A stretch of 63,992 nucleotides of DNA, the filler included, from Basidiobolus ranarum (lineage: Eukaryota): NCBI GenBank assembly GCA_040143965.1. It is 10 parts of 10 records of this genome, joined end to end, with 100 filler letters (N's around TTAATTAATTAA, not from the genome) between each part and the next. Parts side by side here need not be neighbours in the genome. Positions count along the whole stretch, not along the records: positions 19,406 to 25,760 come from JASJQH010001337.1; 9 more parts are not named here. The stretch is one strand, 5' to 3'. The position numbers and the translations under genes are program-made. A model generated the notes under the pieces. The model did no database searches and had not been told where the DNA came from. It was given only the letters and a program-made list of their open reading frames with translations. Below are positions 6,375 through 31,927 of this stretch, piece by piece. Every line of letters starts with the position of its first letter. Within the stretch, counting starts at the first letter, position 1.

Positions 6375-6474
6375 NNNNNNNNNNNNNNNNNNNNNNNNNN
6401 NNNNNNNNNNNNNNNNNNTTAATTAATTAANNNNNNNNNNNNNNNNNNNNNNNNNNNNNNNNNNNNNNNNNNNN
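6375..6474. other. Artificial contig linker N44-TTAATTAATTAA-N44 (also 12845-12944, 19306-19405, 25761-25860, 32202-32301, 38637-38736, 45069-45168, 51499-51598, 57927-58026)
   Basis: Identical 100-bp spacers with stops in all six frames. Intervening contigs are 6370, 6361, 6355, 6341, 6335, 6332, 6330 and 6328 bp, i.e. size-sorted. Confidence 0.98.
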
Positions 6475-15309: not shown

Positions 15310-17160
15310 TTAATTCGATCTTTTCTGCTGGTCAATCCTTCGTTTGATATCGGTGTGTTCCAATGCTAACCATTCATCTACCTCACGAACAAGATCGTTC
15401 ATTTTGGCAAGCTTCAATTGCGTTTGCAAAGTACTAATGGTTTTCATTGATGGTCGAGTTTTCATTTCTTTAGTGAGAACCCTAGTGGCTTCCGAATACT
15501 GGCCAAAACTACAGAGAGCGTGCAAGTATGAACCGTATACATTATCATCTATTGGGTATTTCTGATTCATTTCCTTCCAAGTAGTCTGGAGGTCTTCAAG
15601 ACTCGAATTGTACCTTATTGAGTCCAGCAGAACTGATATGTGAGGGGAGACCAAAGAAACATGGGATTTACATGCTGAGATTGCTTCCCATAGCTCGCGC
15701 ACTTTTAGATGGTTCCCAAGTCGACTGTAAGAATCCATCAAAATCGTATACATAGGCAGGTCTGGCTCAATATTACGCTTACGCATTTGCTCGTAAAATT
15801 CCAATCCTTTTTGAACTTGTCCATTTTTGATATATCCATCCATCATTAGATTGTAGATCTCAAGGTTGTATTCTAAACCAAGGTTTGGGATCGACTTGAA
15901 TAGATCTTCGGCTTCTGGTAACTTCCCTGAAAGTTTATATGCCTTAATGAGAGCCCCTACGACCGGAATATCCGGTTGGACTTTACAAGAAATCATATCG
16001 TCATAAATCTGACGTGCTCCTTCTGGATCAAAGCATTCAGCATGTGCATTTATTAGCTTCGTGAACAAAGACTTGGTCGGTATGATATCGGTTTGCTTCA
16101 TTTCCTTATAGCAGGACATGGCTTTCTCCAAGTTCAAGTCGTCCAGCAAAGCAGAAATAAACGTGGTCCAAGTGAAGAGATTTGGTTGAATGCCATTAGC
16201 CAGCATTTGAAAGAATACTTCTTCAGCCATATTCAAACGCTTACGCTTTACGAATGCCTGTAAAAGAGTTGTGTAAGTAATTACATTGGGACTCACTCCT
16301 CGCTCTAGCATTGTCCGATAAAGCTGGGTCGCTTTCCGTAGGTTGCCATGTTTGGAATAAGCGTGAATTAAAGTGGAGTAAGTGAAAACATCCGGGAAAA
16401 CATTGGCTTTGATCATCTCTTTAAAAAACTCTTCAACTTTGTCCAGTTTTCTCACTTTGGCATTCGCGTCAATTAAGCTATTATAAATCTTTAGATCGGG
16501 CGTGAACCCTTCGGATAGCATCTCATCATAGATTCGGTTTAAGTAATCCAAATCTTTATGTATCTTACACACCTTGAGTAATATATTGTAGGTCTTGATA
16601 TCTCTTGGTATATCGTGTTCTCTCATAAATTCTAGCATACTGTAAGCTTCTCGAGGTCCTTGTTTTCGTAAGGTATTGATAATCAAGTTGCAAGCGAATG
16701 TGTCAGGCTTCAAGTTTTTCTCCAACATATCTTCCAACACCAACCGAACCTTTTCGTAAGGTTCACACAACCCCAACACGGATAATACTGGGGTAAATTC
16801 TTGGAGAGTATAAAACTCTGCTTTCACACGACTAATGGAGGCGAGGATTTCTTGACATTTAGAGAGGTCAGGCTCTATCCCGCTAACACTTTTGTTAAAA
16901 GTACGAAGTAGTTTCGGCCATAGTTTCGAAGGCATATTTTCTTCCTCTCCAGCTTCTACTATCGTTTTGAATAGCTCCCACGTCTCAGCATTGTCATTCT
17001 TGTTCAAACTCCAAGTTAAACGATCTACTAAACTCACTTGACGTGGAAGTGAAATCCCTTTTTTGGTTGCGAAAAGACGTTTGGTATCAAATGAATTTTT
17101 GTAAGGGAATCTTAGAGGTAACTGTCTGGCTACCTTGAAACTTTGGACAAAACCAAACAT
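15310..17160 (-). CDS. Pentatricopeptide repeat (P-type PPR) protein, probably mitochondrial, 616 aa
   Basis: Tandem 35-aa repeats (PDVFTYSTLIHAYSKHG, PNVITYTTLLQAF, PDLPMYTILMDSY). Basic, acid-poor N-terminal presequence. Confidence 0.92.
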   Translation of the reverse strand: MFGFVQSFKVARQLPLRFPYKNSFDTKRLFATKKGISLPRQVSLVDRLTWSLNKNDNAETWELFKTIVEAGEEENMPSKLWPKLLRTFNKSVSGIEPDLSKCQEILASISRVKAEFYTLQEFTPVLSVLGLCEPYEKVRLVLEDMLEKNLKPDTFACNLIINTLRKQGPREAYSMLEFMREHDIPRDIKTYNILLKVCKIHKDLDYLNRIYDEMLSEGFTPDLKIYNSLIDANAKVRKLDKVEEFFKEMIKANVFPDVFTYSTLIHAYSKHGNLRKATQLYRTMLERGVSPNVITYTTLLQAFVKRKRLNMAEEVFFQMLANGIQPNLFTWTTFISALLDDLNLEKAMSCYKEMKQTDIIPTKSLFTKLINAHAECFDPEGARQIYDDMISCKVQPDIPVVGALIKAYKLSGKLPEAEDLFKSIPNLGLEYNLEIYNLMMDGYIKNGQVQKGLEFYEQMRKRNIEPDLPMYTILMDSYSRLGNHLKVRELWEAISACKSHVSLVSPHISVLLDSIRYNSSLEDLQTTWKEMNQKYPIDDNVYGSYLHALCSFGQYSEATRVLTKEMKTRPSMKTISTLQTQLKLAKMNDLVREVDEWLALEHTDIKRRIDQQKRSN

Positions 17161-17733
17161 GGCAAGGACTGATTAGGTAGTATAAAAAACCAAGATATAG
17201 TGGGCAGATATCAAGGACAGTGAAATATTGATAGCCACCAAATTTTTGAAAGTATTACACCCTAAAAGAAAAGAAAATTTTTGATATATATTTGCAAACC
17301 GAAATATACGAGCTTATGTAATAATTTTCTCTTCGATGTTTACTGTGAATACACATATAACAAAAAATGGAGTCAGAACATGGAGATTTTATTGAAACTC
17401 CTAGTCACGGTCCATTGGTCTTCTTGGGGCTTGATAGCTATCTCTCTGGCAGTATGTCCATTAGATATATTACCATTGATTTTTCTATTAGCCTTGATTA
17501 TTTATTCAGACCATTTGTATACTACAAGATTGGAATGCAACGAAAGTATTAGAAAAAGAATAAACAGCCAACTCAAAACTCTTTTCTATCTAGGAACCAT
17601 TGATTGTGTGTGGCTAACGTGTGTCGTGGCATTTTCTTCTGATAACTTGGTGGTAATGAGAAATATATAATAGATTACATAGGTGTATTTTGATAGATAT
17701 CTACTCCGACAAATTTGAAACGTATTAATAAAA

Positions 17734-19305
17734 TTACAAGAAATTCACACGTGCTTCATTGTGACCATCTCTATTTAATCCGGGCTTTACTGACTGTACC
17801 AAACCCTCCTTTGACGATGTTACTGCTTGGTTCAGAGAGCGATCGTTTTCTGACGTTACATCAGAAGGCTTATGTTCAATGTTGGCAAGTTTGACTAATC
17901 CAGCCAAGGTTTGTTCATAACTATCTAGTAAAAACACATCTAGCTTAGGGCTGATGGTTAAATTCTTCGTGCAACCTTCCTCCTCTGCTATACAATCTCG
18001 AGAAGAAATGTTCCACTCAATAGTTCTAGTTCTAGGCACTTCGAGAATCGGCGCAAGTCGTGAGCTATCTTGGACAATCAAAGGATCAAGTCCTATTTTC
18101 ATATGCTCGTCAAATAATTGTGCGACACGAACAAGTTCCTTTACTGCCGATTCCATAGAATTTACGTCCTCTTCATGAGAATCATTTACTGGCTCAGCTG
18201 CAATACGAACGATTTGCATACCACGTCTAAATTTTCTCTTCTTTTTGGCAGTGCGAAGCTCAACTCTGCCAATATGCTGAGACCAGTTTTCGATGACAAT
18301 CGATACCAAATATGTCATTGTACCAACTCCTAAGAACACATACACAATGAATATCGGTGCTCCGACTGGGCTTATGGGTATAACATCGCCATAACCTAGA
18401 ACATACTTGGGGTGTGAGAAAGGAAAATAATTGATAATTCAACATGAACTGTGAAATTACGAACCGATAGTTGTAAAAGCTACAAAGCAAAAATAAAGTG
18501 CTTTTATGTAACTCCAGCCTTCTGTTATACAAAAAATGGCAGCTCCTAGAATCCTAAAATACGCATGTGTCGCTTAGTTGAATTGTTTTTGATGAACCAT
18601 CGAGTATCATACTTACCAAAATAGAACTGCTGAACAAGTTGCGAAAAATAACTGCTTCTTCATTTCATTCTCTTTCTCCTCAATTAACTTTCTACCGAGA
18701 TCATCCCAGGTTTGATATCTTTTTAAAGATAAAATAGTTGTTTCGGCATTAATACCTAGATTTTGCGTTTGTAGAATATCCTCTCTTCCTCTCTCCAGAC
18801 TCTTCGCAAACTTCATTAAAGATTTGTAGTGAATCATTTCAGATACGGAGACGTTGATCCCGGCAAACATAAATCCCATTGCCATAATTCCAAGTGTAGC
18901 ATAAAAAAAAATGAAGATTCTGCCACTCAATGTTTTTGGTACATATGAACCAAATCCGATAGTAGCCAAAGTTTCTGTTATAGCACGGTTAATTAGTTAA
19001 AAAGTAAATGGTTTTTCTTTTTTAAATTTTGTTTCCTACCTAAACAAAAGAAGAGGGCAGATGTGTAAGGCCAACCTTCAATCAAACTATACACAATTGA
19101 TCCCAGACCAGCCCAACAAGCGGCAACCATAATGACTACAATCAAGATACGTGCGCGGTGACTTAGACCACACCCTGAAAGCAAAAATAATATGTAAAAA
19201 TCACGCCCACGTGAAGTATAAATGAATCAGGGGAAACTACTGCTCTTACCACACTTCTCATAATCCTCAGTACGCTTCAAATCGTAAACAAATATTCCAA
19301 AGACG
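17734..19305 (-). CDS. TOK1: Two-pore-domain K+ channel, TOK1-like, 5' partial, multi-exon
   Basis: Two selectivity filters, ATIGFG and TTIG|YGD (split by an intron), plus a G.GLS.R.RIL linker motif. Several GT-AG introns. Confidence 0.8.
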
Positions 19306-20780
19306 NNNNNNNNNNNNNNNNNNNNNNNNNNNNNNNNNNNNNNNNNNNNTTAATTAATTAANNNNNNNNNNNNNNNNNNNNNNNNNNNNNNNNNNNNNNN
19401 NNNNNAATCAATTCGAAATGCAAAAGAGTATTGATGGATATTTTAATCGCTTCACCTAGCTTGTTAAAAAATCTTGAAGAGGAGCAATATTACTACTTTC
19501 ATTTTCCTATGGACATTTATATTGAGGGTAGCTATCTTGACTTTTACTTGGATCTTCTAAAAGATAATCATGAGAGTTGACAATGTCCGGAATAAACTTT
19601 AGCGAGGCTTCACCTATGATCCTAGATCCCAAGACATGAACTTTCTCTGTTGTATATGTGGTTTTCTTCACAAATAAACTCCCTAGAATGATAGGTAGTT
19701 ACTCGTTCCAAATACGAAGTTTTGTCCGCAAATGTATTTCCTCCATTGCAACTATTATTTCTTTACTCTTGAAGAGAATCCACCAAGTTATCCAAAAACT
19801 TCACCAAACAGGACCTCAAGAGAACTATTCACGCAGTTCCGAAGAGCGGGCATATTAACAACTATGAATATGACTAGATATTGTTGATTTCAAATAGGTG
19901 CTCTTGTACAAACCACCACTTTTTTTTGACGACTAGATGGCTACTTTTATTATTTTCAGTGTCAATCAGCCGCTGAAACCATACGTACATCATCCTAATC
20001 TATGTTTTTGATAGTATCAGGCTAGTTGACATATGGCTGAGATTCAACCACTGAGTCTCTGTTTCGACTTACTGAATGAAGTATACGTGATCTCGTACTT
20101 CATTATGGAGTTCGCTTATCTTGACTCGTCACCTGATATTCCAATGGAATATATTTCTTAACCAAATAAATAGGTAAACTTGTATAATAATCAGCAGTGA
20201 CATAGCCGCAGTCAGATGACATATTTCACGCTGTCAAGGTTTACAATAAACGTGCGTAGGAGTAGCACAATACAATCCAAACCAATAACCCTAACCCTAA
20301 TCCTGGCCCCACCAAGTAGCATTCAAAGGTATCTGATTCTCAGAATGGTGGATCGAGTAACTCTAACAGAGAGGGCGCAGTCTATATGCGCTTAAACTTT
20401 GTTAGCGTGGTGTCTTTTCCCAGCCAATAACCACATTGCTTACACAAATAAGTGATGGGAAAGCGACATATACAATGGGATTTAATATTCGATTGTCTGG
20501 TTCCAAGTTGAGCCTGATTGAGCTTGTTTCAACAATTTAACTTTTTTGCCCTTCAATGATGACACAACTCTACTATTTGTTTCTGTTGATCTGTTACCTA
20601 GGGAGATGGGTTTTGGGTGCGCATTCAATCTATCAATACGTTGCTCATTGGGTCATACCACTGTGATACACAGCCAATGACTATGTAGGCTTATGGAGGG
20701 AGTTTGCGGATAAATAGTGGGGAGTAAACTTAAGTGAGGGCGTTTGAAATACCTTTTACTTTTTCGTCGACTCGGAGTAT

Positions 20781-22154
20781 ATGAGGGATGTAAAATCCTT
20801 GATCGTTTATATTGTAATAGCAGTTTGGTCTTTACAGTCGCTGGTCACATCAGCATTGTACTGGTGTCGGCGAGAGAAAGACTGTATTAAGTATCGATCA
20901 CCTGGATTTACAATTGTAGCTGTTTTCACCGCGTACATCCTGGTGTGCATCAGCGTACTTCCGTGGGCGGATGATGGTTTAATACCATGCTTTATTCGCC
21001 TTTGGATAACGAGCTTAGCTTACCCTGTCATGTATTTGTCAGCAACCGCTCGAGCGCTTCGATTGCTGTGCTTCTACCGTATAAGTGAAGCGAAGCTAGC
21101 CACACAAAATTCATTTGCTGTCACTAACTCCCCAACAACCACACTAACACATACCTCCAAAAAACCTTCTAGCCAACTCTCAGTCATTGAACTGAGTGGC
21201 GTAAACCTACCATCTCAATCACCCAGCCCACTGTATCATGAAACCTTGGCTAATAACTGGTACTATCGAAACCGCCGCCTCTTTTCTGTGGTTTTCTACA
21301 CGCAAATATGTTGTGCTATTGTATTTATTCACATTGTAGTTTTAATTGTTATTCAATGCTACACGACCAAGTTCTCCATTCATCCAGTAATGGCAAGCAG
21401 TAACTGCACTGTGGGCTGGGAGTGGCTTCCTCACAGACTGTACATAGTGGTCTATGCAGTAGCTGTCAGCCCGTTCATACTTTTCAAACTGCGGGGTATT
21501 CACGATGCTTATGGAATTCGAGAGGAGCTGATAGCCTTGACAATCATCAACAGTGTCTTCGATCTAGTTTTCCTCATTTTGTTCACACTGAATGCTTTTG
21601 GTGACATTGATCCTGACTTCTACGGACTTCTCTTCATCATTGTCCCCATCTCTCTTATCCACTGCTTCTTGATCATTCGACCACTCTGCGAATCCTATGG
21701 GTTCTTTTTCTCTAGATTCCGAATCAAACGGAATAGCTTACACAAGAGCTTGCAGTTCACCCCTGAATGCTTCGAAAAAATTCTTCGTGATTCGTTGTTG
21801 TTGGAGCAGTTTAAATCTTTCGCTGCAAAGGACTTCACAGTTGAGAACGTTCTTTTCTACGAGAGGTGTCAGGCAATATCACGACATGAAACTGATTCAG
21901 TGAAGATAGAACAAGAGCTCCACGAGACATATACCACCTTTATCGAGCCCAACGCTGAGCTTATGGTCAATTTGGATTGGGATACGTTTTCGAAGATCAA
22001 GGCGGATGTCAGCGTTGAGAAATTCTATCCCGACATGTTCAACGAGGCACAGGCCGAAATCAAAGATTTGATGTTCTGCAACACGTTCCCCAGATTTCTC
22101 GAATACATCAAGTGCAACAAATCTCATTGGGTGACCGACTCTTGCATGGCATAA
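20781..22154 (+). CDS. 7-TM protein with C-terminal RGS domain (GprK/AtRGS1-like architecture), 457 aa
   Basis: IKYRSP, PCFIRLW and DAYGIREEL motifs in the TM part. RGS box FKSFAAKDFTVENVLFY...FIEPNAELMVNL...NTFPRFL. Confidence 0.9.
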   Translation: MRDVKSLIVYIVIAVWSLQSLVTSALYWCRREKDCIKYRSPGFTIVAVFTAYILVCISVLPWADDGLIPCFIRLWITSLAYPVMYLSATARALRLLCFYRISEAKLATQNSFAVTNSPTTTLTHTSKKPSSQLSVIELSGVNLPSQSPSPLYHETLANNWYYRNRRLFSVVFYTQICCAIVFIHIVVLIVIQCYTTKFSIHPVMASSNCTVGWEWLPHRLYIVVYAVAVSPFILFKLRGIHDAYGIREELIALTIINSVFDLVFLILFTLNAFGDIDPDFYGLLFIIVPISLIHCFLIIRPLCESYGFFFSRFRIKRNSLHKSLQFTPECFEKILRDSLLLEQFKSFAAKDFTVENVLFYERCQAISRHETDSVKIEQELHETYTTFIEPNAELMVNLDWDTFSKIKADVSVEKFYPDMFNEAQAEIKDLMFCNTFPRFLEYIKCNKSHWVTDSCMA

Positions 22155-23378
22155 TAGATGATCGGGGGCTTATATACCATTTCCGTCCCATTCCTAACTG
22201 TCAGTCCTCTTCCCCACTCAGAGGATGTATATCAACTAGAATCACCGCTGCATCACGCCACACCGCTCTGTACTGCACCACACCCAGCCATTTTGACATT
22301 TTGTTACTGTTTATTACTTTCATGTGTTTATTTTTCTAGATATTTCTCAATACACTTATTTAACCCTACCCGTACCCGCACTCACACCGCATGAACCTGC
22401 ATTAGCTCACACTACAAGAGAATAAATCATTTGCACCTCTGAAACGCTAGATCACAAGCATTATGCAACGTGACCTAACTAGAAGTCAGTCTTAGGAACA
22501 TAATGGTATACAAATCACTCAGAAGTTACCAAATTTACGAGATCTATGTCAGGTGGAGATCCATTCGATCCATGGCATGGCGTCCCATCCCATCGCATCC
22601 AAACCTGGCCTATTCCTTTGTAATGACATGACACATCCAAGACGGTTTCATAAACACTCGACCAACATTGGTGGATACGCTCTATGTCACAGTAAGTGGA
22701 GCCTCAGATCACAAATGGTGGATTGGAATGATCGTTATAATAGCGATAGATATATATGATGGCTCGAATTCTATCCCTCTGGATTTTTCATCTGGATTCG
22801 TATCCTTGGATCATAAGGTAACTTGAGTGGCCTTGATATTACTTGGATGGCCTGGAACTATTTCCATTCTATGTCGAGAACATGGTAATTGTCTTGCATA
22901 TTCGCTAGATTGTAGCTTGAAATTCATAGATTAGGTTGTGTAGTCATGCCCATTGTGTACGTCATCAGATAGTCTACTTCTGCTTAGGTAATTGCCACAT
23001 TGCTTGAGTAAGTTACTCAACCTTGTTTGCTACTCGTAAAAAGTAGAGAAAAGGCGACAACTCGAAATACAGGAAAATTCAAAGTAGTATTCTAAACAAT
23101 TGGTCCGCTCCACTCATATCTGTTGGAAAACATACTGGATAGAGTGATGGATTATGACATACCAGATGACATTGAATCCTTCATAGCCGATACCAATTTC
23201 ATCAGCTTTTCACAACACTCACTGTGTATTGCTTGGAACAAGTAAGGAACCGAGTGGGATCAATCTAATCTGATTGGTGGATACTTGATTTGTTTTTCAA
23301 TTGAACGATATGATTTTAACAACGATTTAGTCAACTTAAACCATTCACTTACGCCCAGTTAAAGTGGGCCAGTTTTCA

Positions 23379-24842
23379 ATGTCTTGGCACTTCTATCGAC
23401 AAGAGATTGTAGAGTTACTTTGTTCTGGCTTCACCCTCATTCCCAACCAAGTATCCGATATTATAGAGTTGACTAAACCACGTGATGTCTTAAGGTATGG
23501 TGAGTTTCAAGGTTCTATTGATAAGTTAGTTCGCTTAACCGAACTTTCTAAAGAAGAAACGAAGCAAAAACTTGAATCCATGGTAGGGCCAATATTTGAT
23601 TTCTAATCCCCCTGAAGAAAGAATACTTCCTTAACTAATACCTTCCTTCAGTTTCAAACTGGTCATTATGAGTTGGTTCAAAGTAAAAGCTTATTCAGTT
23701 TTCGAATCCAAACCAAGTTCTTAATTTCCAATACCTTATCCCAATGCTTCCCTGACGTATCGAAATTCAACCAAGTCAAGGGAGCCGTTTCAAAGCGAGT
23801 GGGTATCTTGGTCAGTGATACGGAGAATTGGAGAGGTGAAACCTTAGGAAATTTTGTAAGAGAAAGTCATAAGTTTGTGGGTTGTAAAGTGTTTACTTTA
23901 ACAAAGTATGTAGGGAATATTTCGAAAGAATTATTTCCCAACCTAGAACTTGACAAAGAAAAGTTACGAATTGGTACCGAAGGTACTAAACTTGGTATTG
24001 AATTGGCTACACTTTGGAAGTGTGAGGAGAAGTTGGATTTAATCATTTATATTGGAGAGGATCATTTAAAACAACACGTGGCTAAACTTCAACAATTATT
24101 ATTGGAAATAAGTGAAAATTGTCCCGACATTCTTCACCTTCCTTATGGCCCCCTTACTAAGCCCACTCTCAGTAAAGAAGAGATCCTTCACGCTTCACAA
24201 CTTGAAATGCAGGAATTGATGAAAGAAAGTGAAAATAGATATGAAGATTTGTTGAACAGTACTATAACCATCAATGAGTCGGAAGACATATGTCTACTCC
24301 ATTGGATCAGTCAAGTTTTATCCCAAACCAATTGGGTTGTTCAATTACTTCAAATAAGAAGACAAAAGTCCAGTAAATTTAGTTATGAACGAATGCTTGA
24401 TGCCAAGGGACATTCAGGAGTATATCTTCAATACACCCATGCCAGAATTACCGGGTACACATTCCAAGAGAGTGATAACTTTTAAACTGAACCAAAGCTA
24501 ACTTTTCTTCAATTTCATAGTATTGAGCGTAAATCTGACATTCAACTTAATTCTAATTGTGATTTGGGAACTCTTGTTGAACCAGAAGTTCGTCAATTAA
24601 TTTGGTTACTAGCCACATTCTCTTGGCATTTGGAACAATCTTACACTACATTGGAACCATGTATCTTAATTCATTACTTATTTCAACTCAGTATTGCCAT
24701 CTCTAATGGACTCTCCGTATTACGAGTGAAAGATAAGAATCCTTTGGTATCTGAACCACGTTGGATGCTTTTCTGGTGTTCTAGAGAGATTCTTCGTTTA
24801 GGATTCCAATTATTAGGTTTAACTCCATTAGATAAAATGTGA
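23379..24842 (+). CDS. Arginyl-tRNA synthetase-like protein with degenerate catalytic domain (442 aa; exons 23379-23582, 23652-24454, 24521-24842)
   Basis: Two in-frame GT-AG introns. ArgRS anticodon-domain motifs FSYERML..GHSGVYLQYTHAR, LEPCILIHYLF.L and GFQLLGLTPLDKM. N-terminal YGEFQ. No HIGH motif. Confidence 0.8.
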
Positions 24843-25876
24843 GGATTTCTTATTTCTTACTACTAATTTCTATTATCAATCATGATGATAGTAATCCTTA
24901 CATTTCTTTTTACTCTCAAATCTCTAGTTTGATATCGTAACAATGATATATCTTTTGTGTGTAATCTTTTCTTTTGTTTATCATTCTGTTAATGAATCTA
25001 TAGAATTCCGATGTTTCCAACTTCATTCTTATGATTGAATTTGTATCCATTTTTCTTCAATGTTTAATACTTTTGCATAGTTAATAGATTTCACCACTTG
25101 AGATATTTGGTGTTACATGTATCACCAAGTTCACTAATTACTAGGCTATTTATTACTCATACATACTCTTGCTTGCATTGACAATAACCAATTCTGAAGC
25201 TTTCAATGCTTTAGATGTGGATCTGCTTCAGAAATATGTTTAAAATTGGTTGTAAGAATTTGGGATGGATTGAAAGTGTTGAGGATGATCAGAAAAAATA
25301 TTTCATATGAACTAGTAGTTTGATTTTACCAAGTCTGAGATGAAGAAGAGTGACAATAGGGATGTGCTCCTAGGAAATTCCAGTGGTTGGGATTAAAGTT
25401 TAGGGAACTTTGTCCAAGTAGTAACTCATGAAATTGGCATAGTCCAAAATCCTTGATTGAGATATATTGCTTAGTATCTAGTTATTCCATAATCCACTAA
25501 GATAGAACTCACTATTCTTATTTAGAATTTACTTGCTCCTTGGCAAAATATTCACCAAAATCTGTTGCTGCTGTTTGGTAATATTATTTGGCTCTGGGTC
25601 TCAGTTTATATTTGGCTATAGATCAATTGGAACTGCCCTTAACATTGAATACCTTTTTGATGCAGTTAGTTTTGTTGAAGTTTATTGTCTTTATCATATA
25701 TGTTATCCCTATCTTTATACACCTAACTATTTCATATATCACATATTAGTTAGTCAACATNNNNNNNNNNNNNNNNNNNNNNNNNNNNNNNNNNNNNNNN
25801 NNNNTTAATTAATTAANNNNNNNNNNNNNNNNNNNNNNNNNNNNNNNNNNNNNNNNNNNNTACTACAGTAAGTTAC

Positions 25877-28543: not shown

Positions 28544-31024
28544 ATTGCGCTTTAAACTTGTAAGCCGTATCCTTTTTTTTTCTTTGGTGGTTAAATCTCT
28601 TCTAAGTCAAAGCTTGTCACGTCTTAAAGTAGTCCAGGGAAAAAGGAGAGTGCAGCAACCCCGAAATAAAAAACTAAAGGCAACCTTCGGGGCATTTGTG
28701 ACTGTGATCCCTTGGCTGTTCATCCCAAACTAACTGTTTTCCAATTTATTGGGGCTTCATGATACTATTTTGAATTTCCTGGGGCTATTGCTCAACAAAA
28801 TTCCCTCATTCTGGACCATCACTTATTTACTCGAAATTTTCATCACTCCTCATATTTTAACGAGACGTGTCGAGTATAAGACTGCGTAAGACTGGTCAGT
28901 GAACGTAAAATTGTTAAATATTTGAATTACCAGAGTACGACAAACTTTTCTACACTAGTAAATATAAATATTGCATTAAAAAAGCTCGGTAAGTTGCAAC
29001 CTGCTTTCAGAATAGGTGAAGCTGATTATTGTCAATAAACAGAACACTGTCCAATAATGGAAGCGCTGTCGAATCTAGGTAGTTTTTCTCTTGGGCAATC
29101 CTTCTATAACTGCATCCTGGTAGTACTATGATCCCATGCAAATCCTATAAGCTCCGGATTCACCTGACTTGTAGTTTGAAATAAACAAACAATTGGTAAT
29201 CTCAATGTGCCACATATATTTGTTTTGGTATGCTTGATGGGGTTGAATTGTCTGTTGTAGTATGTGAATACAGGCTCTACCTCCAAATATCATGGGCATT
29301 AATATCATTACAGGAAACCAATGAGTGTTGGGAAAAACGTGCTTATTGTATACAAGAAAATGACTACTCGGCTAAAATGCAGACATATTCAAATGGAATG
29401 TTCGTTCGAATGAAACAACTTGTCCGCTGGAAATACAGGTTCTCAAGCAGCCTTCAACACTGCATCTAAAATACATAATTTGACTTGGGTGACACAACTG
29501 CCATGTATTGATTATTCTATGATCCAGATCAACTAATTAGTCAACATTTAGCGGACTCCTTATGTGCATAGAGTATATGTGATTCAAAACCACCCAACGA
29601 TATCGAACAGGTATGTTTCAAAACACGGTGAAGAGCCAGTTTGAACAACACGTTCAGCATCCACATTAATATAGCCCAAGTAGAGCCTTCATTGACTCTT
29701 TTTCTTCTCCTTAGGCTTGTTATAAACAAATCAGCTTATGACTCGGACAGAAATTTGAAATCCTCTCAAGTCTATCAAGTACATTTGATAATCAGTTTTG
29801 GACCAGAGATGTGTGAACACTCCGCAGTTAGTTGAAGTCCAAGATTCTTGCTCGCACTCTGGTCTATACTTCATAAACTCCCGGAAATGCGTATGCTTGG
29901 ACTGTTGCCAGGGAATTACTTGCTACGTACACCTACCTGAGTAGTAACCAGCTATCGCATTCCATTCACGTGACTGAGTATTGAAAGTGGCAATACCCAG
30001 AGATGGGACCGTATAAAATGGTGTACTATTTAGGAGTTCTAGGTGGGTTGAACAAGATCCAATTGATATGTTAAGTTTTCAATCAAGTAAGGATTTATCA
30101 GCAAACTTGTTCTAGTGACACTAATCTATCTCGTCACTTTCATGTTAAGTATTGTAGTTTTTACTCATTTGTGACACTGATGAGCTCCTAGTATGTTACC
30201 CAAATCTCCAACTGAGATATTTTCGAGCGCATCATAGATGGGATTATACGTGAGGTAATAAGCCTCAAACGGCAATTTACGCCGAATGCATGGTGCTCCA
30301 TTGTCAAGGTTAACTTTTCAGTACTTTGTCACTGAGATATTGTATTGTAAGCCGAAATGAGCATGCTATGTGTTGAAACCATGAGGCTGATCTGAGTAAG
30401 GGATCATCCCAGACTGGTCAGTCGCCAAACCCATTCTTCCTGTGATTAGTGCACAAAATAAGCATCTGCTTTCACAGATCCTAAGGGGATCACGTAGAGG
30501 TTTGTAGCAGGAGTTGAATAGTCTAGATCTGTTAAAGTAGTCCTTAAACAAAGGTCACCATGGCAAGTTGTTTGGCTTTAGTCTCGTATTTTATATTCGC
30601 AGCAAGCAGGTTAGATACAGCCTCGTGTCTGAGAAGGGTTCTAGAAGAACAAATATCGCTGCGGATGTGACGCTGCTAATCATTATAATTTGGTCAGATA
30701 TTTATACACATCGTATATTGTGTTCATCCTTAAAGAGTAGTCATCTCCGTTTTAGTCATTTATTATTAATAACAAGATAAACTGTTTCAGATCACCAAGT
30801 TTCAACAGTTTGGATGAGCTACATGAACGACTGGGCTGAGGATAGGGAATTTATGTTGAGTCAGGTATGTTTATACTAATATAACTTGCCCTGCATTAAA
30901 ATCAATTTTATTCATCTAAATAGACCCTCAATATTCCCTGCCACATAGTTTTCAGGCCCCAACCCTTTTTCCTCTCATATTTGGAATTTCTAGAACCGTA
31001 TATAATCCTGAGGTAGGATGGCCA

Positions 31025-31927
31025 ATGGATCGTAGCCGTGTCTTCATTCTAACCATGAAGGCATCCCAGCTCATGTTCACTTCTGCTTTTAGCTACCGCT
31101 CTTCTGCTTCTACCACTTCATCTTCCCTTCTATCTTGGCCTTATTATCCCTATATGGACCGTAGCTTTCCCCATCCCCCCTCTTTTTCTCTTCCATGTCA
31201 ATACCCGGTGTCGAAACAGTCATCATATGCCTCTGAGAAAAACTCGTTCAATCATAATACATCCTTCATAACAAGTGAAGAGGTCGTGAAGCTTGATATC
31301 AACGGATTAGCACAGTTCTGTGCGGATATGGTATGCTCAATATGGCATTTTAATTCTGGCCTTCTCGAAATACCCGCAGATCCTGCTTTTCAAGGTTTTT
31401 GCTGTCGAGTGCTCTCATCCACTCAAGTGCCAATACCCGTGGTACTACTTGCCTTGATTTACATCCAGCGATTTAAAGGTTCCAGCCCTTCTACCAAAGG
31501 AGCAGATAGCTCCGAAGGTCGGTTATTTGTCGTTTCACTCATGCTGGCCAATAAATATTTAGATGACAACGCCTACACCAACCGTACATGGTCAGAAGTC
31601 ACTGGAATCCCTCTTCAAGAAATCAACATTATGGAGAAGGAGTTTCTAACTGTTCTCTCGTTCAATCTTAACGTAACTAATCGAGAGTTGAAAGGATGGT
31701 CTAAGTCGCTGAAGGATCATCTTAATTATCAAGGGGCCTTGCTAAGATCTGCAGCTAGTACTGAAGGCTCAGCCATATCCTCTTACAACTATAATCATGG
31801 TGGTGATTTTTACTGGTCGTATTGGCATCCCTTCATGGCCAATATCAATCACTCCTACCCCTTTTTCCCTAGTCTTTCATTCTGTAAGTATACCTTTCCG
31901 TTCACCCATTGTCCAATGCCATCCTAA
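31025..31927 (+). CDS. PHO80/PCL-family cyclin-like protein (start may be the ATG at 31055)
   Basis: Cyclin box: VLSSTQVPIPVVLLALIYIQR, LMLANKYLDDNAYTNRTWSEVTGIP..EINIMEKEFL..LSFNL. Confidence 0.88.
   Translation: MDRSRVFILTMKASQLMFTSAFSYRSSASTTSSSLLSWPYYPYMDRSFPHPPSFSLPCQYPVSKQSSYASEKNSFNHNTSFITSEEVVKLDINGLAQFCADMVCSIWHFNSGLLEIPADPAFQGFCCRVLSSTQVPIPVVLLALIYIQRFKGSSPSTKGADSSEGRLFVVSLMLANKYLDDNAYTNRTWSEVTGIPLQEINIMEKEFLTVLSFNLNVTNRELKGWSKSLKDHLNYQGALLRSAASTEGSAISSYNYNHGGDFYWSYWHPFMANINHSYPFFPSLSFCKYTFPFTHCPMPS

Follow-up and report, generated by a model that had tools for sequence, protein, structure and literature searches.

The stretch of DNA analysed here (the window: 63,992 nt from Basidiobolus ranarum, consisting of 10 joined parts with filler between them) carries, in the part that comes from JASJQH010001337.1 (positions 19,406–25,760), a three-exon gene on the plus strand (23379–24842) whose predicted product of 442 aa and 51 kDa is related to arginyl-tRNA synthetase (ArgRS) and ends in GLTPLDKM. 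We scanned all GT..AG combinations near the proposed junctions and obtained a single model free of stops, whose exons and introns are given in Table 1; its ATG is the first in-frame ATG downstream of a stop. Moreover, the product aligns from end to end and without gaps with K493DRAFT_313935 of Basidiobolus meristosporus (P0002, 442 aa), with 58.6% identity overall and 50–57% identity, also gapless, over residues 1–120, exon 1 included. The clean 442-residue reading frame in three exons that a preliminary description of this locus had put forward is thus upheld by both the splice-site scan and the orthologue. The deposited NCBI model K7432_013466 (P0001, 375 aa), to which our exon 2 product is 100% identical, does not contain exon 1: it starts at Met68, the last codon of that exon (23580–23582), and leaves out the first 67 residues, a stretch conserved in B. 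meristosporus. Because the gapless alignment with the orthologue includes exon 1, the 442-aa model is, by sequence comparison, better supported than the deposited one.

Loss of catalytic elements and conservation of the DALR domain

We used MAFFT to align the protein with 17 relatives and also with the 150 listed matches of a phmmer search described below (151 rows). Opposite the canonical stretch that contains the HIGH motif stands SDTE--------NWRGETLGN. Eight residues (IAKPFHxG), the first His of HIGH among them, are deleted; the final His is replaced by Asn127, Trp128 lies opposite the next Leu, and of GHLRS only Arg129 remains. Further downstream, canonical NYLGDWG is opposite KYVGN, and only 18 residues separate the NYLGDWG columns from those of DGxxxYxTRD, against 133–161 in most full-length canonical ArgRS rows, so that the insertion, usually of about 135–150 residues and said earlier to be mostly missing after KYVGN, is indeed reduced to a short remnant. 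Canonical DGxxxYxTRDxA faces TEGTKLGIELA, and FGxxxGMSTRKGxxV, the KMSKS-equivalent region, faces YGPLTKPTLSKEEI; here the loop reads YGPLTKPTLSK, and the conserved R and G columns of MSTRKG are occupied by S242 and a gap. The same replacement of the MSTRKG loop is seen in the alignment with yeast ArgRS 1bs2 (which reads HVNFGMVQGMSTRKG there), the top phmmer match among PDB sequences, which covers query residues 190–442 only (E 5e-19). The losses of HIGH and of the GMSTRKG loop, both claimed in the preliminary description, are therefore found in the alignments as well. Changes also affect SSPN, YxTRD and the Q of xxQ..HF, which we take to be the arginine/ATP-site columns: N is replaced by E126, Y by K181, R by I184, D by E185 and Q by L207.

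To express this divergence as a count, we took the 72 alignment columns whose conservation among 41 canonical ArgRS reaches 85% or more; 53 of these columns belong to the catalytic core and 19 to the C-terminal part. The window protein keeps 7/53 core columns and its B. meristosporus orthologue 12/53, while canonical enzymes keep a median of 51 and a minimum of 24. Consistent with these figures, neither the Pfam catalytic domain tRNA-synt_1d nor Arg_tRNA_synt_N was matched at E ≤ 1 by the exons, P0001 or P0002. The changes in HIGH, the insertion and the loop all lie within the uninterrupted exon 2, and when the 64-kb window was searched by tblastn with two canonical fungal enzymes, no further ArgRS-like piece came up. 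Together, these two observations exclude missed exons as a source of the motifs, a possibility that had been raised for HIGH. As far as the alignments tell, the ATP/arginine active site and the adjoining insertion domain are lost in this protein.

The C-terminal part presents the opposite picture, and the earlier statement that the DALR domain is well preserved is confirmed. DALR_1, the only Pfam domain detected (E 4.8e-12 with exon 3 alone and 1.6e-16 with P0001), is matched over profile positions 1–117 of 117. All 19 conserved C-terminal columns are kept, compared with 17/19 in B. meristosporus and a canonical median of 17; retention of the domain was judged by these conservation columns. 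They include LQYxHAR and R416, which show little or no variation across all 59 aligned sequences. The DALR part (residues 301–442) is basic, with an isoelectric point (pI) of 9.1. That every conserved C-terminal column is kept is the pattern predicted if an ancestral RNA-binding role has been retained.

An AlphaFold2 model, built for the orthologue P0002 alone with the 59-sequence alignment, has a mean predicted local distance difference test score of 91.1 and a predicted template-modelling score of 0.90. Among PDB structures, Foldseek ranks 1f7u_A first, the complex of yeast ArgRS with tRNA-Arg and arginine (query template-modelling (TM) score 0.84, E 5e-21), to which the model aligns over its whole length; the next matches are other ArgRS structures, and aminoacyl-tRNA synthetase (aaRS) structures were the only ones returned from the PDB. 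The N-terminal domain, described previously as an ArgRS remnant, can be recognized as such in the predicted fold and in the family profile presented below, but not by Pfam, so it appears to be ArgRS-like only at the fold and profile level. As for its composition, the first 30 residues contain one K/R and four D/E, and the proportion is four to one in two canonical fungal enzymes; we considered mitochondrial targeting and judged it unlikely on the weak heuristic that an acidic N-terminus is unlike a presequence.

The intact frame had also been read as a sign of selection. To evaluate this, we simulated neutral evolution of the coding sequence by random substitutions only, with 2000 runs per divergence. 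The open frame survived 3/2000 runs when divergence was 0.1 substitutions per site and 0/2000 when it was 0.2–0.5, where mean amino-acid identity was 65–37%. Between the two Basidiobolus species, for their part, 41% of the amino acids differ, yet the shared frame of 442 codons contains no indel. An intact, indel-free frame at 59% identity, considered together with the simulation, points to selection and is hard to square with neutral decay. From the sequences, we consider it very likely that the protein is non-aminoacylating and under purifying selection.

A degenerate ArgRS-like family in early-diverging fungi

The phmmer search, in which P0002 was compared with 1.84 billion representative sequences, gave 965 matches at E ≤ 0.001, of which the best 150 were listed. 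Among these 150, the Basidiobolus entry is the only one matched by the whole query; in the other 149, the best stretch begins at query residue 126 or later. The top catalytic matches listed are the ArgRS of Choanephora, Bifiguratus and Neoconidiobolus, together with animal mitochondrial ArgRS. The closest catalytic relatives are thus yeast/RARS2-type enzymes, as the preliminary description had supposed from the C-terminus, and the list agrees with the derivation of fungal ArgRS from the mitochondrial gene (PMC8318970).

HxGH and MSTRK are both absent from at least 20 proteins (20 of the 151 rows). These degenerate members come from B. ranarum and B. meristosporus, Calcarisporiella thermophila, Absidia cylindrospora (Mucorales), a Conidiobolus coronatus cluster, five chytrids (Blyttiomyces, Zopfochytrium, Powellomyces, Polychytrium and Nowakowskiella) and ten Mortierellomycota. 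Most of them are labelled "Arginyl-tRNA synthetase", "arginine--tRNA ligase" or "hypothetical" in databases; the ArgRS labels are in all likelihood mistaken, and tallies of aaRS genes could be misled by them. A profile made from 19 members (A1) matches residues 35–607 of yeast ArgRS (E 5.6e-74); the profile has no counterpart of the yeast HIGH segment, which is an insert in this alignment. When the 19 members were searched singly against Pfam, DALR_1 was found in 19/19, tRNA-synt_1d in 5/19 and Arg_tRNA_synt_N in 2/19. A segment of insertion length is kept in most members of the family, and among the near-full-length ones its near-complete loss is common only to the two Basidiobolus proteins: Calcarisporiella has 64 residues left, and the Zopfochytrium row (397 aa), with 17, may be an incomplete model. 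The family also differs from canonical ArgRS in a PT motif and in the two tryptophans of ARWxLFW, W417 being present in 15/20 family rows against 2/41 canonical ones and W421 in 17/20 against 8/41. In one protein, P0055 of Lunasporangiospora selenospora (1595 aa), approximately the first 600 residues form a degenerate ArgRS-like unit, which could reflect a fusion or a merged gene model.

The window gene thus appears, on sequence grounds, to be one member of a wider degenerate ArgRS-like family of early-diverging fungi. Full-text searches of the literature gave us no account of a family of non-catalytic ArgRS in fungi, although the survey by Igloi (2020, Gene Reports) might mention such proteins; it is this family context across early-diverging fungi that is new here.

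To place the family, we built trees from all well-filled columns (571) and repeated them on the C-terminal 250 columns only, in order to exclude the columns of the motif-loss trait itself. A quick search with the 571 columns recovered the 20 degenerate rows as one group, with a support of 97 in the Shimodaira–Hasegawa-like approximate likelihood ratio test (SH-aLRT). This group adjoins five fungal-type canonical ArgRS rows, three of named fungi and two unnamed (SH-aLRT 96), and lies apart from animal RARS2. With the C-terminal columns, the degenerate group was recovered in the quick tree (SH-aLRT 93) and in the careful tree (ultrafast bootstrap 97, SH-aLRT 75), and it was present in 98% of 200 bootstrap trees; its union with the five fungal-type rows received 97/86 in the careful tree. 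Within the group, the chytrids fall together and so do the Mortierellomycota, as vertical descent predicts. Several degenerate members are long branches, flagged as such by the tree program. With Basidiobolus as the sole degenerate representative, the lineage still stood beside fungal ArgRS, weakly (SH-aLRT 56). In an approximately unbiased (AU) test, a tree that unites all 34 canonical eukaryotic ArgRS to the exclusion of the degenerate family was not rejected (difference in log likelihood 14.3, p 0.25). The trees, whose rows comprise no DALRD3 sequence, indicate a single, well-supported origin of the degenerate family and favour, but do not establish, a fungus-specific one.

A profile search with A1, in which 8000 candidates were scored, returned mostly bacterial ArgRS, and neither DALRD3 nor a canonical ArgRS from Basidiobolus was among them. 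That B. ranarum has canonical ArgRS genes is taken here from their essentiality only.

Possible role of the protein and its relation to DALRD3

The explanation towards which we lean, with moderate confidence, is that the gene encodes a non-catalytic paralogue of fungal (mitochondrial-type) ArgRS, maintained by selection as a specificity subunit that binds tRNA-Arg. The most likely role would be that of a non-aminoacylating adaptor, and binding of tRNA-Arg by the protein seems to us somewhat probable in its own right. Activation of arginine and charging of tRNA would be impossible for such a protein. Its DALR domain would dock on the anticodon stem-loop of tRNA-Arg without charging it; for yeast/mitochondrial-type ArgRS, the main identity element of tRNA-Arg is C35 (PMC4742068, PMC8318970). 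The specificity subunit would then present tRNA-Arg to another activity, and the likeliest partner would be an enzyme that modifies the anticodon loop, by analogy with the DALRD3–METTL2 and seryl-tRNA synthetase (SerRS)–Trm140/METTL6 pairs. That the protein is an adaptor specifically for a tRNA-modifying enzyme is a tentative proposal drawn from these analogies, and one we regard as doubtful.

The likeness to fungal/mitochondrial-type ArgRS (yeast 1bs2/1f7u; RARS2) on which this explanation draws consists of homology over the whole length at the level of the family profile, the same predicted fold, a DALR domain with 19/19 conserved columns that ends in G(L/I)xPxxxM, and nearest listed catalytic relatives in Mucoromycota, Neoconidiobolus and animal mitochondria. 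The differences are the missing HIGH, MSTRK loop and insertion domain, the altered arginine-pocket positions and the length, 442 aa as compared to about 560–620.

Four observations weigh against an adaptor for tRNA-Arg. Basic character is confined to the DALR part: the pI is 6.3, mildly acidic, for the protein as a whole and 5.3 for the core remnant. The structural evidence comes from a 59%-identical orthologue and not from the window protein itself. The positions that correspond by eye to the D-loop contacts N106/F109/Q111 of yeast ArgRS are S/L/S in both Basidiobolus proteins, so the N-terminal domain need not touch tRNA as that of yeast ArgRS does; nevertheless, the three residues are dispensable in the yeast enzyme (PMC8318970), and nothing firm about the domain follows from their replacement. 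Finally, 3-methylcytidine (m3C) on tRNA-Arg is, according to PMC7237682, undetected in yeast or plants.

Two known systems provide the analogies. In DALRD3, a part without recognizable motifs comes before the C-terminal DALR domain; the protein binds METTL2 and directs m3C at position 32 (m3C32) on tRNA-Arg-CCU/UCU, and it possibly arose from an ArgRS duplicate (PMC7237682). The window protein resembles it in its architecture, a C-terminal DALR domain after a region without recognizable synthetase motifs, in its presumable derivation from ArgRS and in its position in feature space, where DALRD3 clusters are its nearest non-catalytic neighbours in the ESM Atlas. It differs in keeping the full predicted ArgRS fold, in the lack of any sequence-level link that we could find to the N-terminal region of DALRD3, and in the tree, which favours, not decisively, an origin beside fungal ArgRS. 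A functional analogy between the two is plausible. SerRS, as the tRNA-Ser specificity factor for Trm140/METTL6, likewise shows an aaRS fold giving tRNA identity to an m3C32 methyltransferase (PMC7237682; 10.1101/2023.12.05.570192), the difference being that SerRS is a working class II enzyme and the window protein would be a dedicated, inactive class I paralogue.

The closeness to DALRD3 could also reflect true orthology, in which case an ArgRS duplication before the split of fungi and animals gave rise to a non-catalytic adaptor for tRNA-Arg, with present-day descendants in vertebrates, in early-diverging fungi and possibly in arthropods. We consider this unlikely, but it is the alternative that fares best. 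Once clusters with the catalytic domain are set aside, the three that rank highest by features in the ESM Atlas are chordate DALRD3 (0.92–0.93, 176–182 of 256 features), a result to be taken as a lead only; these clusters carry Pfam DALR_1 and PF26758 DALR_N. Residues 1–300 alone are also nearest to DALRD3/DALR_N clusters, at 0.86–0.87, which is under the lead threshold, and the AU test leaves a position of the family outside the 34 canonical eukaryotic ArgRS unrejected. A 447-aa arthropod cluster, "GL16554", has DALR_1 only and a feature score of 0.92, which also speaks for orthology; it suggests that DALR-only ArgRS-like proteins occur in invertebrates, whereas PMC7237682 reports DALRD3 homologues in vertebrates only, a restriction that itself tells against orthology. 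The best trees, moreover, put the family beside the five fungal-type rows and apart from animal RARS2, and residues 1–125 remain unmatched in the best stretch of all 149 listed non-Basidiobolus phmmer matches. No match to DALR_N was obtained with P0001, with P0002 or with the 19 family members, a weak point, as the Pfam library used may predate PF26758. No DALRD3-like chain in the PDB matched P0002 or the family profile, and by structure the nearest Atlas clusters are bacterial ArgRS (TM 0.89). It is improbable, in our estimation, that vertebrate DALRD3 belongs together with the fungal family and the DALR-only proteins of arthropods in a single ancient lineage of opisthokonts, made up of non-catalytic adaptors for tRNA-Arg that derive from ArgRS. 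If they do, DALRD3 is not a vertebrate invention, and adaptor-guided modification of the tRNA-Arg anticodon loop (m3C32 or other) existed in early-diverging fungi and was lost in Dikarya.

Somewhat less likely still is a selected function that does not involve tRNA, with the protein acting as a non-catalytic scaffold or regulator (for example, one that links proteins to each other or that regulates canonical ArgRS or arginine signalling) and the DALR domain conserved for structural or protein-binding reasons. Other aaRS-like pseudoenzymes, such as HisZ, have non-tRNA roles; the overall acidity of the protein would fit a role of this kind, and the family-specific W417, W421 and PT motif hint at a new interface. 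However, all the conserved C-terminal columns, LQYxHAR and R416 included, have been kept, and the loss of the arginine-pocket positions argues against arginine sensing. A functionless locus, whether a duplicate in decay or an artefact of the gene model, is very improbable: heavy divergence, the absence of catalytic motifs and the disagreement between the NCBI and 442-aa models at the 5′ end could be taken that way, but the frame of 442 codons is intact with canonical splice sites, the alignment with B. meristosporus is gapless, no neutral run kept the frame at the relevant divergence, and the protein has relatives in several fungal phyla and, in its orthologue, a confidently predicted fold. 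Least credible of all is an ArgRS with an unconventional active site, for although family members bear ArgRS labels and KMSKS is already degenerate in ArgRS (PMC8318970), HIGH is physically deleted, 7/53 core columns are left, the insertion domain is gone and tRNA-synt_1d is unmatched.

We know of no ArgRS-derived pseudoenzyme with a known role other than vertebrate DALRD3. That inactive ArgRS paralogues make up a conserved family spanning five or more fungal phyla raises the question of whether the use of a dead synthetase as a reader of tRNA identity is recurrent or ancient, and a second one, whether early-diverging fungi have tRNA-Arg-specific modifications beyond those of yeast models. The degenerate family offers tractable organisms for both.

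Other degenerate sequences and surroundings of the gene

Other aligned rows also depart from canonical ArgRS. The ArgRS-like protein of records P0109 and P0171 (569 and 589 aa) lacks the MSTRK loop and has SSPKLGKPLDMGSFRS as a degenerate form of HIGH; it keeps 27/53 core and 16/19 C-terminal columns, groups weakly with a spider mitochondrial ArgRS, and may be a separate, animal-side degenerating RARS2 paralogue. P0069 of Pelomyxa schiedti (637 aa), annotated as arginyl-tRNA synthetase, reads FDTCN at the HIGH position and SFRTRAG at the MSTRK loop and keeps 40/53 core columns, which makes its aminoacylation activity uncertain.

Exon 2 runs from the remainder of the N-terminal domain through the degenerate core with its Rossmann fold into the beginning of the DALR domain. 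Elsewhere in the window, four open reading frames or fragments with Pfam domains were recognized (Table 1), with no evident functional cluster or link between them and the ArgRS-like gene, and no tRNA genes were found in the 64 kb.

Table 1. Positions, in the window, of the parts of the ArgRS-like gene and of other features
Feature	Position	Strand	Remarks
Start codon	23379	+	ATG
Exon 1	23379–23582	+	codons 1–68 (MSWHFYRQ...LESM); start of N-terminal domain, Add1-like at fold level
Intron 1	23583–23651	+	69 nt, GTAGGG...CAG; in-frame stop if retained
Exon 2	23652–24454	+	codons 69–335 and 2 nt of codon 336
HIGH-site remnant	23814–23840	+	residues 123–131, SDTENWRGE; from alignment to canonical ArgRS
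Insertion-domain junction	23904–23972	+	residues 153–175 (KYVGNISKELFPNLELDKEKLRI); from alignment to canonical ArgRS
Position of MSTRKG (KMSKS-equivalent) loop	24135–24176	+	residues 230–243 (HLPYGPLTKPTLSK); motif absent
Pfam DALR_1	24426–24839	+	residues 327–442; split by intron 2
Intron 2	24455–24520	+	66 nt, GTACAC...TAG, phase 2; CTAAC branch-like motif; in-frame stop if retained
Exon 3	24521–24842	+	final base of codon 336 to codon 442, and TGA
Stop codon	24840–24842	+	TGA
Pentatricopeptide repeat (PPR) protein, open reading frame	15313–17172	-	Pfam PPR repeats
Two-pore-type potassium channel, fragments	17737–18996	-	Pfam Ion_trans_2
Seven-transmembrane protein with regulator of G-protein signalling (RGS) domain, open reading frame	20748–22151	+	Pfam 7tm_3 and RGS
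Cyclin, open reading frame	30920–31924	+	Pfam cyclin domains

The window also contains 18 runs of 44 N (792 N), none of which touches the gene; they are paired and recur every ~6,430 bases, a regularity more in keeping with masking than with gaps in the assembly, between positions 6375 and 58026.

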